The notes: a model not told the origin generated them from the sequence alone. A DNA stretch of 32,000 bases from Microcystis aeruginosa NIES-2549 (GCF_000981785.2 NZ_CP011304.1:1890001-1922000), one strand, 5' to 3'; positions 12,030 through 18,238 are shown, counted from the first letter of the stretch. Numbers and translations are program-made.

Positions 12030-12260
12030 AATGTTAGTGTAATTGTTTCTCCCTGTAGAGAAATAAGTTTTTCTACTTTTGACTTAGGCTTATTTTGACA
12101 TACTCCCACCGTCAAGCTACGCTGTGACGGGGGATTCTTTCCACATCGCTGTTAGAAATTCCTTGTTCAACGAGACAGCTTAGATTTTCAATGTCTCCAT
12201 TAAAAACCCAGAGGTCGGACTCTCCCAAGGCGTTTGGGTCGGTTTCTGTTTGCCCAACAG
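12030..12260 (-). ncRNA. Predicted omega-RNA (reRNA) of the tnpB element; extent is approximate
   Basis: Inferred from what is known of TnpB systems, where the guide RNA is encoded across the tnpB 3' end and the right end of the IS. A hairpin CCGTCA-n10-TGACGG (12109-12130) spans the stop codon, and a second hairpin TTTCTC-n6-GAGAAA lies near 12045-12063. Confidence 0.3.
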
Positions 12261-13500
12261 TACCGTTGAGATGATTTCCCAAATATTTCAACCCTTTTTT
12301 CAGAATATTTATTGCTGCATTATGATCCCTATCTAAGACTGTTTTACAATTGAGGCATTGATGAGTTCTAGTGCTTAATGATTTTTGAACTCTCGTCCCA
12401 CAAACTGAACAATCTTGAGTCGTGAAATGGGGAGGAACAGCAATACAAACAATCCGATAAATCTTGGCAAAATAATTCAACCATTCAGTGAATTGATACC
12501 AAGAAGCATCGGAAATCGACTTGGCAAGCTTACGGTTTTTTACTAAGTTTCTTACCTTTAAAGCTTCATAGACTACCAAATCATTAGACTGGACTAACGC
12601 CAAAGCGTCTTTAATTGCTTTGTCTTTACGTTGTCTTGACACCTTAAGATGAAGCCTAGCCACTTTTATCCGTTGCTTGTGATAGTTGTTAGACTGTTTC
12701 TTTCCTTGACGAAATAGTTTTGATAATCGTCTTTGTGCTTTTTTCAGTCGTTTTTCTGACTTTCTTAAATAACGTGGATTCTCTACAGTATTACCTTGAG
12801 CGTCAGTATAAAACTCTTTTAACCCTAAGTCAATTCCTGTTATTTGTCCCGTTGGTTCATGGTATTCTTGCCGCTCTACGTCAATTAAAAACTGGCAATA
12901 ATAACCGTCAGCACGTCTAACAACTCTTACCCGTTTAATCTGTTGTTCTGAATAATAAACTAAGGTTTTCTGACTACACCATAAATCAAATTCTCCTGCT
13001 TTAAAACCATCAGTGAACTTGATTTTACGTCTATCATCAGATAGTTTGTAACCCGTTAGTTTATATTCAACCGAACGGCTATGCTTTTTGAACCGAGGAA
13101 AACCATTTTTCCCCGCTATCTTAGCATGACAATTCTGGTAAAACCTATTAATTGATTGCCAGGCTCTATCAGCAGCCGATTGACGAGCTTGAGAGTTTAA
13201 TTTATTAACCCAAGGTGTCTCTTTATTATTAGCTAGTACCGCACAAAGTTTTTGGAGATCATTGCGGGTTGTTCCTTTATTTTCTATCCAATAACGAACA
13301 CAAGAGTTACGGACAAACTGAGAAGTTCTGATAGCTTCATCAAGTTTCTGATATTGCTCTGGTGTTCCGTTTTTTAGCTTCGCTTCTACGACTAGCATTT
13401 AACAATCCACGACCATTGGATAAATTAAGTATAACACAGTTTACCCACAGAGGGTGGAATTAAACCGATGCTCTGGGGTTGATATTCTGGTCAGATTTCA
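12040..13500 (-). mobile_element. IS200/IS605-family element lacking tnpA (IS1341-type); ends not resolved
   Basis: tnpB is the only gene and no Y1 transposase lies nearby. The element must end within the 84 bp between the tnpB stop (12112) and the permease ATG (12027). Confidence 0.45.
12112..13398 (-). CDS. tnpB: TnpB (OrfB) RNA-guided endonuclease, IS200/IS605 family
   Basis: 428 aa. RuvC-I ITGIDLGLKEF, RuvC-II VVYEALKV, zinc finger CSVCG...HQCLNC, and RuvC-III DRDHNAAINI. All catalytic positions are present. Confidence 0.9.
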   Translation of the reverse strand: MLVVEAKLKNGTPEQYQKLDEAIRTSQFVRNSCVRYWIENKGTTRNDLQKLCAVLANNKETPWVNKLNSQARQSAADRAWQSINRFYQNCHAKIAGKNGFPRFKKHSRSVEYKLTGYKLSDDRRKIKFTDGFKAGEFDLWCSQKTLVYYSEQQIKRVRVVRRADGYYCQFLIDVERQEYHEPTGQITGIDLGLKEFYTDAQGNTVENPRYLRKSEKRLKKAQRRLSKLFRQGKKQSNNYHKQRIKVARLHLKVSRQRKDKAIKDALALVQSNDLVVYEALKVRNLVKNRKLAKSISDASWYQFTEWLNYFAKIYRIVCIAVPPHFTTQDCSVCGTRVQKSLSTRTHQCLNCKTVLDRDHNAAINILKKGLKYLGNHLNGTVGQTETDPNALGESDLWVFNGDIENLSCLVEQGISNSDVERIPRHSVA

Positions 13501-13537: not shown

Positions 13538-14185
13538 CTAGCGGGGGCATTCATCCGACATTTTAGGTAAGTGTTCCAGAGCTTGATCAGCACGCAATCT
13601 TACCACTATTTCCGCTTCTGTCTCCCGAATCTGCGCTAAAAGTTCCCGAATCGCCCCGCGAAATGCCGCCGCCGCAGTTCCTAATCCCTCTAATCCGACA
13701 ATCGCCGCATATCTAACCACCCACTCTGGATCCCCTTGCGAAAGTTTCTCCAGTGCCGCAAAAACAGCCTTCTGAGCCTCAGAAACCCGACTTTCCTCCA
13801 AATCAGACCAAATTATATTTCCTAAGCCTCTAGCCGCTCCTCGCCGCACGCTAAAGGAAAAATCACTCACCGCCGCCTCAAGCAATAAGTCCAATCCTCG
13901 CACATCGCCAATTCCCCCTAGGGCGCGGGTTGCCCAAGCTCTCGCCCCATAATTATAACCGTCTAGGTTGGCTAGTAAATAGGGGACCGCCGCTTTGCCG
14001 ATGGCGATTAAACCATCCACGGCTGCCACGGAGGCACCAGGGTTATTGTATCTCAGCACATCGGTGAGGGTGGGTATTGCCGCTTCACTTTTGGCGGCGG
14101 CTAAGTTTTCCACGGCTGTTAGTAACTCATTAGCTGAGTCGGCTTTTTCGACGGCAATAATTAAAGTCTCAACGGTGGGAAGCAT
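13538..14185 (-). CDS. cpcF: HEAT-repeat phycocyanobilin lyase subunit, CpcF-like
   Basis: 215 aa of HEAT/PBS-lyase repeats (...AVDGLIAIGKAAVPYL...ARAWATRALGGIGD...VRRGAARGLGNI...VRYAAIVGLEGLG). The size and its pairing with a CpcE-like gene on the same strand fit CpcF. Confidence 0.7.
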   Translation of the reverse strand: MLPTVETLIIAVEKADSANELLTAVENLAAAKSEAAIPTLTDVLRYNNPGASVAAVDGLIAIGKAAVPYLLANLDGYNYGARAWATRALGGIGDVRGLDLLLEAAVSDFSFSVRRGAARGLGNIIWSDLEESRVSEAQKAVFAALEKLSQGDPEWVVRYAAIVGLEGLGTAAAAFRGAIRELLAQIRETEAEIVVRLRADQALEHLPKMSDECPR

Positions 14186-14216
14186 TGTTTATCAGTAGAG
14201 GGGATGAGGGGTTGGG

Positions 14217-14251
14217 AATTATGAATTATGAATTATAAATTATAAATTATG
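14217..14251. repeat. Heptamer array (GAATTAT x3, AAATTAT x2)
   Basis: Read directly. Confidence 0.85.
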
Positions 14252-14333
14252 AAGTGGGAAGAATAAATAAAAATAATCTCCTGACGACTGATTCTTATCT
14301 CCTAACCCCACCAACAAACTCTTAAAGATAATT

Positions 14334-14627
14334 TTATCGCCAAACTTTTTTCTGTAAAATCTGACTAATTTCTTGGGGAAAAGGACAATCATCGGGAAAG
14401 TTAAAGGATTGATAATCGGGGTTATCTCGCAAGCTTTTTAAAGCCGTGGCATAGCAATCTAAAAATACTTGATCCCAGTAGGGTTTTAAACTAGGAGAAT
14501 CCCTCAAAAGTTCTTCTAGTTCCCGTTGACTGCGCCTAATAGTTTCTTGCCAACCTCGATAATCCTCAACGTAATCAGTATAGCAGAGTTTGAGGCAGTG
14601 TGTTGACTTCTGCCCAAACTTTCTATC
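14334..14627 (-). pseudogene. DUF29 gene, C-terminal fragment with no start codon
   Basis: The reverse frame reads ...HCLKLCYTDYVEDYRGWQETIRRSQRELEELLRDSPSLKPYWDQVFLDCYATALKSLRDNPDYQSFNFPDDCPFPQEISQILQKKVWR*, a typical DUF29 C-terminal half. No Met is present, and the fragment ends at the 13-bp junction repeat. Confidence 0.7.
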
Positions 14628-14734
14628 GTTCCAGATCAGCAGCAGCGAGTAACCTTCGCCATTGTACCAAAGACTTCACACCGTCCGCTACACTGGGGGG
14701 TGTATGCTGTTTACTAGGGCCGTGGGGAACTTAA

Positions 14735-14751
14735 AATCCCATTTTGGGATT
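14735..14751. promoter_or_regulatory. Candidate C-box-like operator palindrome upstream of the controller gene
   Basis: AATCCCA-ttt-TGGGATT has perfect 7-bp arms and lies 55 bp upstream of the C-gene ATG. Confidence 0.35.
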
Positions 14752-14805
14752 ATTCTAAAATAGGTTTATCTTGGAAATGCTAACTCCTGTGCTCATTAAA
14801 GCACG

Positions 14806-15069
14806 ATGAAATCTATTTTTAGCCCAGAGTACCATGTCTTTCGTCAATGCCTGATCGCCGCTCGTAAGGATGCGAATTTAACTCAAGCAGCCCTCGCTAA
14901 AGCCATCAAAAAGCCGCAATCTTTCGTTGCCAAATACGAAAATGGTGAAAGAAGATTAGATGTGGTTGAGTTCCTTCTGGTTAGTCGTGTAATCGGTGTA
15001 GATCCTTGCGAAATTTTAAAGCAAGTTGAGCAAGCTTGTCAGTCCACATCTTGTGGGGAAGGGTTATGA
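14806..15069 (+). CDS. XRE-family HTH protein, likely the restriction-modification controller (C) protein
   Basis: 87 aa. LTQAALAKAIKKPQSFVAKYENGERRLDVVEFLLVSRVIGVDP is a Cro/CI-type HTH. Its stop overlaps the REase start (ATGA at 15066-15069). Confidence 0.75.
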   Translation: MKSIFSPEYHVFRQCLIAARKDANLTQAALAKAIKKPQSFVAKYENGERRLDVVEFLLVSRVIGVDPCEILKQVEQACQSTSCGEGL

Positions 15070-15983
15070 ATACAGAAGATGTTATTAGCCTGGCATCGCA
15101 ATATCTAGATGATTTGTCTGGACATAGATTTGACCTATTAGACATTGCTAGACCAATATCGGTTGCTGCAGCAGTTAATTTAGCCAAAGTAATTTCAAAG
15201 CTATCACCACTATTGGGAAATCTGATTGAATTTAACACTGTTGAGTTTTTGAATAAGCAGGAAATATTTGCGCCGTTTGGTGAATGGAAAAGGCAAGATC
15301 CAGGATTTCCTGATACTGTCTTCATGGGTAGCATCCAGCCTACCCCGGGATTAGAAATAAAAGCATGGTTCCCATTAGCTACTGAAATAACAGCCCGTTT
15401 CAAAGATAGTCAAAATCATTTTCAGTTTGATCAAACCTAAGTTTCTCTAATAGCTTGGCTGCCTGAAGCGGTAATTTATGGCAAACCCAAGATTCTAGAT
15501 GTATGCGTTGTCTCTGGCTTTTCAGTGGCTAAAGCGAGAGATGATCATTATCATAATCCTCCTGATTACCTTGTTCTAGAACCCGAAGATACAACCCAAA
15601 GGAGAGCAAATTTGCAACAAACAAATACTAATGGATACAAATTTCAAGGGACGGACGAAGAACTATTTCAAGCTGAAGAAATAGTTAATTCTTGGGGAAA
15701 TGATGGCAGGCTTTATAAGCCGACACAAGAGTATCAAATGCTCTTGCGGGAACTGATCACTCGCTTCAAATATAGATTAGACACTAATTTTGCCAAAATG
15801 GACAGGATTTTACATCCAGGAATTGAGGATTTTAAAAAGCGTGTTTATCGAACACAGTTCTCTGGAATGAAAGTTGGACAGTGGAACAGGCTTTTAGCTA
15901 GTCGTCGAGAGGAGTTAATTAAATCTGCTTTAAGAGAACACCTTGGCATTAAAGAAGGGAACATTGATGAACTACTTGACTAA
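15066..15983 (+). pseudogene. Type II restriction endonuclease (PD-(D/E)xK) interrupted by a single in-frame TAA at 15438-15440
   Basis: Track ORFs 15036..15440 and 15525..15983 are in the same frame, and the only stop between them is the TAA at 15438-15440 (codons 15441-15524 are open). The N-terminal part carries FPD-x14-LEIKAW, a PD...ExK nuclease motif. Confidence 0.65.
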
Positions 15984-17037
15984 ACCTTTTGACTCCATAA
16001 TAGAAATAAGTTTCGTCAATTTCACAAGCGAAAGCTTTTCGATTCAGGATATTGGCGGCTAAAGAGGCACTGAAAAGCCCCCCAAATGGTTCCCAAACCA
16101 CATCCTGTTCCTCACTTGAAGCTGCAATAATTAATTTCATCAGATCCAGTGGCTTTTGATTTAAGTGAACAGCTTTACCATCCTTAGACTTAATTCGTTC
16201 ATCATCGCGCAAAGCTGAACGATCCCAAACATTTGTAAAACCATGAGGGCAATTAAATTTAGAGCGCATCTTCTCCCACTCTTTACCTGTTAAAGGACGC
16301 TGGCCATTTTTAGAAAAATAGGGTTTTCCCTCTGGGTTTCCGTGTTCGTTGGCATAGAAAACTAATTTTTCAAACATTTCGGGTGGGGGAAAATACCATA
16401 AATGTCCTTGATCAAAATATTTTCTTGTTGCCGCATCTGCGACACCACAAGCTAAATTAGCTTGACGCAAAGGTAAGCCCGATCTTAACCATTCCTTTCG
16501 GAGCCATTCTTTAATTGTTAAGTCAGCAATTTTGACTTCTCTAACGTATTGGACGCAAACCTCTGTCACCACTGGAAAACGCCTTATTTTTTCTGTGTTG
16601 ACATTACCTGCAATATGACCTTTTCCTTTATTCCATATATTACAATTAACATATCGCCAGCCAAATTTCTCAAGTATTGGATGTACCACAGCCCAGCCAA
16701 TTTCTGAGTTCCAAAACCAAAGAGTTGTATTTGGCAAGGCCAACTTAGACCAAGCTTCCACATGAGGTTCATACCATTCAGGTAGGTCAAGATGATCTGA
16801 TGTATCACCTTCAAATCCTAAAAGACCGTAGCCTCCGTCTGAGATTATTACTATAGGTTGTTCCCAAGAATCATAATGTTCAATGCTATTACCAAGACTC
16901 AGACTAACACTGCTGTTATTCCAAGCTGAAAAAGCTAGTTTCTCAGTAAGTTGGACAGTTTTGCCACGCCCAACAGTGCTTGTTGCTTTATTCTTCTTTA
17001 TACTTGGCAGACGATGGGAAGGCTCAGGTATATCCAT
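15949..17037 (-). CDS. Beta-class N4/N6 DNA methyltransferase (N6_N4_Mtase-like)
   Basis: The C-terminus HLNQKPLDLMKLIIAASSEEQDVVWEPFGGLFSASLAANILNRKAFACEID matches the HxxQKP...DPFxGS SAM-binding region of beta-class MTases. An N-terminal beta-strand IVIISDGGYG sits where the (D/S)PPY motif is expected. The gene converges on the REase gene and overlaps its 3' end by 35 bp. Confidence 0.8.
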   Translation of the reverse strand: MDIPEPSHRLPSIKKNKATSTVGRGKTVQLTEKLAFSAWNNSSVSLSLGNSIEHYDSWEQPIVIISDGGYGLLGFEGDTSDHLDLPEWYEPHVEAWSKLALPNTTLWFWNSEIGWAVVHPILEKFGWRYVNCNIWNKGKGHIAGNVNTEKIRRFPVVTEVCVQYVREVKIADLTIKEWLRKEWLRSGLPLRQANLACGVADAATRKYFDQGHLWYFPPPEMFEKLVFYANEHGNPEGKPYFSKNGQRPLTGKEWEKMRSKFNCPHGFTNVWDRSALRDDERIKSKDGKAVHLNQKPLDLMKLIIAASSEEQDVVWEPFGGLFSASLAANILNRKAFACEIDETYFYYGVKRFSQVVHQCSLL

Positions 17038-17130
17038 GGATTTTTTTATCGTCTTATAAACAGTATGAATATCAATACTCTATCCTGTTTTAGGATATTT
17101 GGCTACCCCATAAACCAATGACCTAGAAAG

Positions 17131-17259
17131 TTAGCCTAAGACTAGCAAACTTTCTATCTCCCCGCTCAAGTTTTCCCAGTCAACTTGATCAAAGTTTTTT
17201 TGTTTTAACAGAGTGATTGTTTCGTTCAGCCAGCCAACATAATCGGTTTGAATTAGCAT
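17131..17259 (-). pseudogene. DUF29 gene, N-terminal fragment (42 codons, then an out-of-context stop)
   Basis: MLIQTDYVGWLNETITLLKQKNFDQVDWENLSGEIESL is a typical DUF29 N-terminus. It then runs into LVLG* just after the 13-bp junction repeat. Confidence 0.7.
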
Positions 17260-17314: not shown

Positions 17315-18127
17315 TTACAATAAACTATCCATTAAAGTGAGAATTTCCGAGATATTTTCGCCCCTAGAATTAGTTTTTAGATGGTTTTCTAAAAGTTCCT
17401 TGAGAGCAACCAGTTTCAGACTATTTTCCGCCAAAGTATTAGCGATCGCAGGAGCAGCCGGCAGATAACCCGTAGCGCCCAAATCCATTAAAGCAGAACG
17501 ACGCAGCTGTAATTCTTCCCCTTGCAAGGCATTAATCAGAATATCGCCATAGTCGGGGTTAGCCGTGAGTTGATAGAGGGCGCGGGCAGCCGCATAACGC
17601 ACTTTTTCGACGAAATGCTTTAAAAACGGTTCAATGAGGGGAATCGCTTCCCTCGCTTGCAGGGTTCCCAAGGCTTCGATAATCGCCTCGTAGGGTTGGA
17701 CTAAATGGGGTTTTCCCGTCACTAAAACGGCCACTTCGATGCCACCCTCTAATAGTTTCTTTAAAGGTGCGATCGCTCTTCGATCCTGAAGCATTTCCAA
17801 TGCCTGGGCAGCCGATTCGCGCACATAATAATCTTCGCAGTCGAGACAGGCAATCAAAGCGGGAACACAACCGAGATCATCTAATTTCCCTAAAGCACTG
17901 GCAGCGTTGCGTCGCAGGGGATAACCGCCGTCAGGAGTGCGATCGCTTTCGTCCTCTAAAGCGGCAATTAACGCCGAAATCGCCTCCGGTTGACGAACAC
18001 GAAATCTACCCAACCACCAAGCGGCATAATAACGCGCTCCTAGGTCTTCTCTTTGCTGGATATTAGCGATCGCTTGTTGAACAGTATAGGCCGGATTATC
18101 GACGGCAGCAGAGTAAGAATCGCTCAT
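17315..18127 (-). CDS. cpcE: Phycocyanobilin lyase subunit CpcE-like (HEAT repeats)
   Basis: ARYYAAWWLGRFRV...DRTPDGGYPLRRNAASALGKLDD...YYVRESAAQALE is the CpcE pattern. The ATG at 18127 is preferred over the track's TTG at 18133. Confidence 0.75.
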   Translation of the reverse strand: MSDSYSAAVDNPAYTVQQAIANIQQREDLGARYYAAWWLGRFRVRQPEAISALIAALEDESDRTPDGGYPLRRNAASALGKLDDLGCVPALIACLDCEDYYVRESAAQALEMLQDRRAIAPLKKLLEGGIEVAVLVTGKPHLVQPYEAIIEALGTLQAREAIPLIEPFLKHFVEKVRYAAARALYQLTANPDYGDILINALQGEELQLRRSALMDLGATGYLPAAPAIANTLAENSLKLVALKELLENHLKTNSRGENISEILTLMDSLL

Positions 18128-18143
18128 AGACAAGTGAAAATGG

Positions 18144-18164
18144 GTGTGGGGTGTGGGGTGTAGG
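18144..18164. repeat. GTGTGGG heptamer, 3 copies
   Basis: gtgtggggtgtggggtgtagg, read directly. Confidence 0.8.
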
Positions 18165-18238
18165 GAAGGAAACCTCTTTCATCTCTGGTGGTGAAAATTT
18201 TTTCATCAGGACTGACTCGGAGAATACTGACGACTGAC

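Follow-up and report, generated by a model that had tools for sequence, protein, structure and literature searches.

A restriction-modification cassette without mobility genes in a DUF29 gene between cpcE and cpcF of Microcystis aeruginosa NIES-2549

The interrupted DUF29 gene and its empty sites

In a 32,000-nucleotide stretch of DNA from Microcystis aeruginosa NIES-2549 (GCF_000981785.2, NZ_CP011304.1:1890001-1922000; henceforth the window, positions in which serve as coordinates throughout), a gene of the DUF29 family lying between the light-harvesting lyase subunit genes cpcE and cpcF is split in two by a restriction-modification (R-M) cassette. The cassette comprises genes for a controller protein (C), a restriction endonuclease (REase; R) and a convergent methyltransferase (M), and is bordered on both sides by an exact direct repeat of 13 bp. 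A preliminary description of the window, prepared from its sequence, had interpreted this arrangement as an insertion into DUF29 with target duplication or through microhomology. Comparison with other Microcystis genomes supports such an insertion, with the amendment that the interrupted DUF29 gene is mostly a second copy standing beside an intact one. The features that define the interruption are the following:

14334-14627, minus strand: C-terminal fragment of DUF29; Pfam DUF29 positions 54-136 (piece 14613..14334), with the scar of a net 37-nt deletion
14615-14627, no strand assigned: direct-repeat copy on the C-gene side; exact 13-mer, the first 13 nt of the retained DUF29 C-part
14628-17145, no strand assigned: insert of 2,518 bp, missing from the empty-site alleles (blastn against 12 Microcystis loci and junction alignments)
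17146-17158, no strand assigned: direct-repeat copy on the M-gene side; exact 13-mer, the last 13 nt of the DUF29 N-part
17146-17259, minus strand: N-terminal fragment of DUF29; 38 codons, Pfam profile positions 3-41, 93-99% identity to orthologues

The repeated 13-mer, CAAACTTTCTATC, occurs at these two sites only in the window, even with one mismatch tolerated, as against a chance expectation of about 0.09 matches; it is thus no dispersed repeat. None of 100 shuffled sequences held two or more copies of it, and none of 200 shuffles of the flanks produced a flanking direct repeat of such length. The two copies are spaced 2,531 bp apart. The duplication is exactly 13 bp, identity stopping at both sides of the repeat, and neither side of the insert shows further DUF29 homology beyond the 13-mer border. 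Examination of the two fragments reveals that they jointly cover a single DUF29 (PF01724) domain and are collinear with ten intact orthologues of 143 aa. The N-part (17259..17146) encodes the 38 residues MLIQ...ENLSGEIESL, with ...DWENLSGEIESL as its final residues, and its open frame continues into the insert up to 17131; the minus-strand frame closing at 14334 translates as ...THCLKLCYTDYVEDYRGWQ...KKVWR. The join of ENLSGEIESL to GRSQ, obtained earlier by removing one repeat copy and the insert in silico, agrees with the ten intact Microcystis orthologues, which read ...EEIESLGRSQKRELRNRLTTILEHCLKLCY... at this point.

Relative to the ten intact genes, the C-part contains a second frame break, at which the 38-39 nt after GGCAGAAGTCAA have been exchanged for 1-2 nt, giving a net loss of 37 nt at 14601-14602. 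This deletion with filler bases sits 12 bp from the insert junction. The preliminary description had noticed the loss and taken it as a sign that the host gene kept decaying; the loss is real, but such decay is not established, because the same scar is found in two alleles that lack the cassette (L110 and L120, see below).

To compare alleles, one genome per GTDB species with CpcE was taken, which gave 12 Microcystis loci. In five of these (L002, L004, L007, L010 and L011) the site is empty: an intact 143-aa DUF29 gene with a single 13-mer copy inside it lies directly downstream of cpcE and, L004 excepted, is followed next by cpcF. The cassette is present in the remaining seven, all of which share an identical M-side junction, 13-mer|CTAGTCTTAGGC, pointing to a single insertion event; the C-side junction and the 37-nt scar are common to the window, L001 and L016. 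A metagenome scan with the DUF29 N-part and the 13-mer yielded 18 contigs, about 10 of which are empty (one 13-mer and an uninterrupted 143-aa open reading frame, ORF). The empty-site allele anticipated in the preliminary description is thus present in both collections.

The neighbors of the interrupted gene are as previously assigned:

13538-14185, minus strand: cpcF, downstream neighbor; NCBIfam phyc_lyase_CpcF, 263.2 bits against a cut-off of 220
17315-18133, minus strand: cpcE, upstream neighbor; NCBIfam phyc_lyase_CpcE, 428.9 bits against a cut-off of 330, and PDB 5n3u at 1.6e-95

Both exceed the NCBIfam equivalog cut-offs, which confirms their identity, and they stand 3,129 bp apart in the window. 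In the nearest outgroup, Pannus brasiliensis (L012:10760-10900), the cpcE-cpcF gap is 75 bp with no DUF29 gene between them; at this position DUF29 is therefore itself an insertion specific to Microcystis. Heptamer tandem arrays occupy the spacers upstream of cpcF (14216-14253, GAATTAT x5.4) and cpcE (18142-18165, GGGTGTG x3.4), and the repeat type and length of these spacers vary strongly among strains. On the other side of cpcF, 140 bp downstream of it, lies a TnpB gene (12112-13398, minus strand; NCBIfam guided_TnpB, 1.5e-79), which codes for an RNA-guided endonuclease of the IS200/IS605 family. The TnpB element, of about 1.47 kb, is missing from strain L086, which otherwise is 98.5-99.7% identical to the window; its absence from L086 indicates a recent insertion sequence (IS) insertion unrelated to the cassette. 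Apparent mentions of DUF29 in a paper on HEPN proved in fact to be DUF294_C matches.

Genes and putative operators of the cassette

The insert contains three genes and three palindromic boxes:

14736-14750 and 14752-14766, plus strand: two 15-bp palindromic boxes, ATCCCATTTTGGGAT and ATTCTAAAATAGGTT, upstream of C; putative controller operators
14806-15069, plus strand: C gene; 87 aa, helix-turn-helix (HTH) controller, Pfam HTH_3 at 1.1e-11 and a weak match to PADLOC Control_protein (8e-5)
15066-15983, plus strand: R gene; 305 codons, Type II restriction endonuclease family, a pseudogene here
15949-17037, minus strand: M gene; 362 aa, amino-methyltransferase, Pfam N6_N4_Mtase at 5.7e-19 (69.4 bits against a cut-off of 26.7)
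17082-17096, no strand assigned: a lone palindromic box, ATCCTGTTTTAGGAT, that precedes M; putative site of controller binding at the M promoter

The stop codon of C overlaps the start of R in the tetranucleotide ATGA at 15066-15069, and M is convergent with R, with an overlap of 35 nt, and runs in the same direction as cpcE and cpcF, all three being on the minus strand. The C gene is kept beside R in most other contexts in which the cassette occurs. The boxes upstream of C form the best-conserved non-coding block in a comparison of the window with 9 loci from six other cyanobacterial lineages, and the box upstream of M, likewise kept in most other contexts, marks the M-side end of the common core. 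Together these features predict that the cassette is a controller-regulated Type II R-M unit, in which a C-R operon faces a convergent M gene. A promoter and terminator scan gave no signal over the shuffled background.

A similar layout is known from Esp1396I (Bogdanova et al. 2009, PMC2691842), whose CR operon is convergent with M and whose promoters carry two C sites in the case of CR and a single one in the case of M. The present cassette resembles it in the orientation of C-R toward M, in the small HTH C protein with a stop overlapping the R start and in the 2 + 1 operator-like palindromes. By analogy, the C protein is predicted to bind the two boxes at the CR promoter and the one at the M promoter, whereby R would be delayed and M limited. 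Unlike in Esp1396I, the box, ATCCYNTTTTRGGAT, is unrelated to the classical C-boxes, the operators here being putative, and R comes from a different family that has no Pfam model.

Searches of R against Pfam, NCBIfam and PDB sequences recovered no match. It is recognized by the PADLOC profile REase_II (PDLC03583; E=2.9e-48, residues 12-288), and it displays a PD...ExK motif. In an alignment that includes sequences of as little as 27% identity, K99 never varies and conservation of P82, D83 and E97 is 90% or more. An AlphaFold2 model of high quality (predicted local distance difference test, pLDDT, of 93.5) gave in Foldseek weak fold matches (E 2.6e-3 or worse, template-modeling scores of 0.24-0.34), almost all of them to Type II REases, namely HincII, NlaIV, SwaI and PvuII. 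R is thus comparable to the EcoRV/HincII/PvuII-like PD-(D/E)XK Type IIP REases in its motif, in its strong match to the PADLOC/REBASE-derived profile and in the identity of its best fold matches; it differs from them in that those matches are weak and that none is found at the sequence level in the three databases named. The homologues of R number 3,288, extend across cyanobacterial orders at 74-90% identity and are without exception annotated as hypothetical.

In the window, R is interrupted by an in-frame TAA at 15438-15440, which replaces the TAC codon of Tyr124. This codon is TAC in L001, L003, L005, L008, L016 and L088, and Tyr is encoded, and R intact, in all seven other carrier loci; the same stop recurs in two further assemblies, L086 and L087. 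R in the window is thus a pseudogene, and the locus now codes only for a methyltransferase and its regulator. Hence the gene content given in the preliminary description (a controller, a nuclease and a convergent methyltransferase, and nothing else) stands, with the correction that the nuclease gene is disrupted.

M matches PADLOC MTase_II (4.3e-21) and has 6,642 homologues. Its C-terminal motifs NQKPLDL (293-299) and EPFGGLF (316-322) are invariant, and the placement of motif X/I follows the beta-class order. Residues 66-71 (16825-16842) read SDGGYG where the catalytic motif IV, (D/S)PP(Y/F), is expected, and S66, D67, G68, Y70 and G71 do not vary among 20 homologues whose identity falls as low as 64%. 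Either the active site is unusual, or the motif has been misassigned.

Tandem, truncated and scarred alleles in Microcystis

In five of the seven genome carriers, and in all seven carriers among the 18 metagenome contigs, the interrupted DUF29 gene is a second copy beside an intact one. The order in this tandem arrangement is cpcE, intact DUF29 (copy 1), a spacer of about 60 nt, a diverged upstream region (83-91% identical), and then the N-part, cassette and C-part (copy 2), followed by cpcF. The interrupted single-copy arrangement of the window was encountered in none of the 18 metagenome contigs. Its N-part is 99% identical to copy 2 of L001 and 93% to copy 1, and its upstream spacer is of the copy-1 type; given this combination, the window allele is most simply understood as a deletion derivative of the tandem form, and it is the rarer and probably derived arrangement. 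It would have arisen by recombination between the two N-terminal parts. An attempt to polarize tandem and single alleles by C-part similarity failed, the C-parts of copies 1 and 2 being indistinguishable.

The occurrence of tandem DUF29 copies in many strains, at a locus that is highly rearranged, also invites the idea that there was no true target duplication and that the cassette replaced the DNA between the 13-mers of neighboring copies. Such a replacement would need a three-copy array, which was never observed; furthermore, the 13-mers border the insert exactly, with no additional DUF29 homology on either side, and the single-copy empty allele is common. We regard this course of events as very improbable.

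Among carriers, mean pairwise identity is 98.4% for M and 97.4% for R, compared with 95.5% for cpcE and 94.7% for cpcF, and the flanks of the window are closest to those of empty-site genomes. The lower divergence of M and R indicates that the cassette is younger than the genes around it and has moved between Microcystis lineages. These data bear on a second alternative, according to which the cassette was inserted elsewhere (in another DUF29 copy, a paralogue or another lineage) and was then imported beside the resident DUF29 gene by homologous or Campbell-type recombination; the 13-bp duplication would be real but made elsewhere, and the window allele would be a later deletion derivative. 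The prevalence of the tandem arrangement, the fact that copy 2 is never seen uninterrupted, the mixed ancestry of the N-part and spacer in the window and the relative youth of the cassette are all in its favor. Against it, no other DUF29 locus with the cassette or the spacer was found in the window and the fetched loci, the C-parts of the two copies cannot be told apart, and the data fit a local tandem duplication with subsequent insertion just as well. An origin elsewhere is therefore a possibility that we hold tentatively, and as the less likely one.

Several carriers have undergone secondary deletions. L005, L006 and L009 share one that joins cassette nt 2505 to nt 178 of the DUF29 C-part. 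L006, a Microcystis wesenbergii metagenome-assembled genome (10780-10900), has lost 141 nt from the start of the insert as well as the DUF29 N-part, and with them the M promoter, its box and the first 11 codons of M, whereas C and R are intact. M begins there at a new ATG 9 nt after the cpcE stop and, having lost its own promoter, must depend on read-through from cpcE. L008 lacks the 5' part of C together with all sequence downstream of that part.

Two independent metagenome assemblies, L110 (QLAH01039527.1, 1-1199) and L120 (ENA ERZ27313221, 1-583), contain cpcE, the DUF29 N-part, one 13-mer and a C-part with the 37-nt scar, and no cassette; their fused ORFs of 70 aa differ from each other at 2 residues. 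These alleles could have arisen by precise loss of the cassette through recombination between the 13-bp repeats, by loss via the 25 identical bp that copy 1 and the C-part share in tandem alleles, or by a deletion older than the insertion. Their being chimeric contigs is less likely, because two assemblies agree. The position of the deletion 12 bp from the junction favors, without settling, a single complex event followed by later loss; the deletion may have predated, accompanied or outlasted the insert.

Further variation at the locus was seen in other sequences. The DNA downstream of DUF29 is not cpcF in L004 (1337-1600) and in L110 (reverse complement, 642-1199), which implies a further rearrangement parting cpcE from cpcF in some Microcystis strains. 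Protein P0394, encoded on an NCBI contig of 1,976 bp, represents a DUF29 allele that is normal up to ...CLKLCYT and continues as a repetitive TECRCTECRC... translation, suggesting a short-repeat expansion or an insertion in the DUF29 gene of another strain.

Ends of the insert, proposed origin and significance

The 2.36-kb core of the cassette is present at at least 7 unrelated loci in other cyanobacteria. The triad C(87)-R(305)-M(362) was found, at 73-88% DNA identity, in Leptolyngbya O-77, Spirulina subsalsa, Snowella, Limnospira, Gloeotrichia and three metagenome lineages; Planktothrix has an R-M pair with no called C gene and shares DNA with the window over 15066-16909 only. The DNA shared with the window begins in every case near 14731 (14731-14734) and in most extends to about 17105, just beyond the boxes. 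The M-side limit reaches 17141-17152 in L081, L082, L084 and L085 and 17099-17105 in L089/L090, L093-L096 and L098, and homology to Spirulina ends earlier, at about 17075. Two stretches of the insert accordingly lie outside this core:

14628-14732, no strand assigned: C-gene-end stretch of 105 nt, in Microcystis carriers only, outside the core of other cyanobacteria
17106-17145, no strand assigned: M-side flank of about 40 nt, common only to the Leptolyngbya O-77 and Snowella cassette copies

A 15-mer taken from the 105-nt stretch is confined to carrier loci, and the stretch is probably donor flank DNA; the closest non-Microcystis cassette copies (L095 and L098) were uninformative as to its origin. 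From these comparisons, the 2,518 bp between the repeats read as the 2.36-kb conserved core plus lineage-specific flanks and not as a discrete element, an amendment to the earlier notion of a 2,531-bp unit. GC content is no marker of the insert (about 0.38-0.41 mostly, up to 0.445 at the C-gene end, with cpcE and cpcF at about 0.48-0.54).

As described previously, no transposase or integrase is present in the insert (ORFs and Pfam), and no inverted repeats link its two ends. The other cassette copies likewise have neither inverted terminal repeats nor mobility genes of their own, and in none of six other cassette contexts was there a flanking direct repeat above the shuffled expectation. On the M side, AAGTT.G at the end of the repeat copy recurs in the native cassette flank of Leptolyngbya and Snowella (L081 and L084), which reads ...GGCAAGTTAGGG..., similar to the ...AGAAAGTTTGGG... 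of the DUF29 target; this resemblance places the M-side junction within a microhomology of 5-8 bp.

Two further candidates at the borders were rejected. At the M-side junction, TAGAAAGTT (17124-17132) and AACTTTCTA (17149-17157) form a 9-bp inverted repeat that resembles a hairpin; a functional role for it was dismissed because the cassette arm is AAGTTTCTA in most other carriers. Contig L088 is exactly 2,531 bp long and was considered as a circular form of the cassette. It begins 17 nt ahead of the 13-mer and stops about 20 nt short of the other junction, its ends do not overlap, and its length is coincidental.

Other contexts of the cassette show variation of their own. Arthrospira platensis C1 (L089:4884-6009) has M called in two pieces, of 63 and 316 aa, beside an intact R, and Planktothrix paucivesiculata (L092:3356-4918) has a phosphatase gene upstream of the R-M pair in place of C; both represent further stages of decay or variants of the cassette. 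In Leptolyngbya O-77 (L081:4800-5561), an IS with a DDE transposase abuts the C-gene side of the cassette, and the near-identical metagenome contig L082 lacks this IS. The same cassette adjoins SMODS and S_4TM genes, which are CBASS-like, suggesting that in Leptolyngbya O-77 it lies within a defense island.

The short exact target duplication at both borders recalls DNA transposons and IS elements, and one may ask whether the cassette is a non-autonomous element moved in trans, precisely in and out, by a tyrosine or serine recombinase using the 13-mer as an att core or by a transposase that duplicates 13 bp. Besides the position of the repeat precisely at the borders, this would suit the two cassette-free contigs, which keep one 13-mer and the nearby scar as precise excision would leave them, and the near-palindromic 15-bp boxes, 5-12 nt from both core ends, could be read as terminal repeats. 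In contrast to transposons, however, the insert has neither a transposase nor inverted repeats between its ends; these ends do not coincide with those of the core, from which they are offset by the extra 105 nt and about 40 nt of lineage-specific DNA; the ends vary among independent insertions; and the six other insertions of the core are devoid of above-chance duplications. In addition, all Microcystis carriers derive from one event, the boxes are at the positions expected of promoter-operators by comparison with Esp1396I (PMC2691842), and the scar allele is also explicable by slippage or recombination involving the 25 identical bp of copy 1 and the C-part. Mobilization in trans is, on this evidence, unlikely. 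Somewhat less likely still is that the cassette is a reversibly mobile unit without a recombinase, inserting with a 13-bp duplication and being lost precisely at the repeat through a process that it drives itself. Such self-driven mobility may, for example, involve a break made by the cassette's own nuclease, or the C protein acting on the boxes at both extremities of the core; in the latter variant the operators would double as transposition ends.

R-M gene complexes that have entered genomes with duplication of the target, and that carry no mobility genes, form a recognized class (Nobusato et al. 2000; Furuta, Abe and Kobayashi 2010, PMC2853133). The survey in PMC2853133, whose thresholds were set at repeats of >20-30 bp, lists a Microcystis aeruginosa case, NIES-843 versus PCC 7806, with an 88-bp repeat. 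Like the insertions described by the Kobayashi laboratory, the present insert is below 20 kb, contains R-M genes only, lacks an integrase or transposase, and is flanked by a repeat of which a sister genome has just one copy at its empty site. It departs from them in that its duplication is of 13 bp rather than more than about 30 bp, in that it lies inside an ORF with a 37-nt deletion nearby, and in the many allelic states of the locus (empty, filled, tandem, truncated and scarred). As 13 bp is below the survey thresholds, this class of event went uncounted in PMC2853133.

In light of the above, we consider it probable that the cassette results from a single illegitimate, microhomology-mediated integration of foreign R-M DNA that was followed by spread. 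The ragged ends, the lack of a recombinase, the one short duplication and the filler deletion 12 bp away argue for illegitimate integration over transposition or site-specific recombination. The comparisons indicate that the cassette, as naked DNA from a different cyanobacterium, came into a single Microcystis lineage on one occasion and landed in the DUF29 gene between cpcE and cpcF, with 13 bp of the target being duplicated at the junctions. Break repair or replicative template switching might have mediated the microhomology-dependent step, and either could also yield the 37-nt deletion with filler. Thereafter, as the divergence among carriers shows, the interrupted gene and its cassette passed among Microcystis lineages, presumably by homologous recombination through the DUF29, cpcE and cpcF flanks.

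Several points weigh against such an integration. The mechanism is read solely from the anatomy of the junctions, where the microhomology is of 5-8 bp and on the M side, and a 13-bp duplication is no automatic product of end-joining. The scarred alleles L110 and L120 could signify that the cassette was lost precisely at the repeat, an outcome equally compatible with a site-specific process, or could mean that the target was already a pseudogene. Furthermore, the interrupted copy has never been seen uninterrupted beside the intact one, and the original insertion may for this reason lie in another DUF29 locus or lineage. Finally, selective constraint could be a partial cause of the low divergence of M and R.

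The locus is a well-resolved new case of a known class, and it carries an uncharacterized but widespread REase family. The entry of R-M systems that lack mobility genes into chromosomes has been understood mainly from a few genome comparisons. Here an unusually complete natural series is available for one event, including the empty site, the filled site with its 13-bp duplication, the tandem form, three secondary deletions, a nonsense mutation in R and cassette-free scars, and this series shows that insertions with short duplications were missed by the thresholds of earlier surveys. It also suggests that, after one illegitimate insertion, such a unit may travel within a species complex by homologous recombination. 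That a defense cassette is tolerated between two light-harvesting lyase subunit genes, and not purged, is a further aspect of this case, and the R family, whose members number more than 3,000 and carry the annotation hypothetical, merits characterization.

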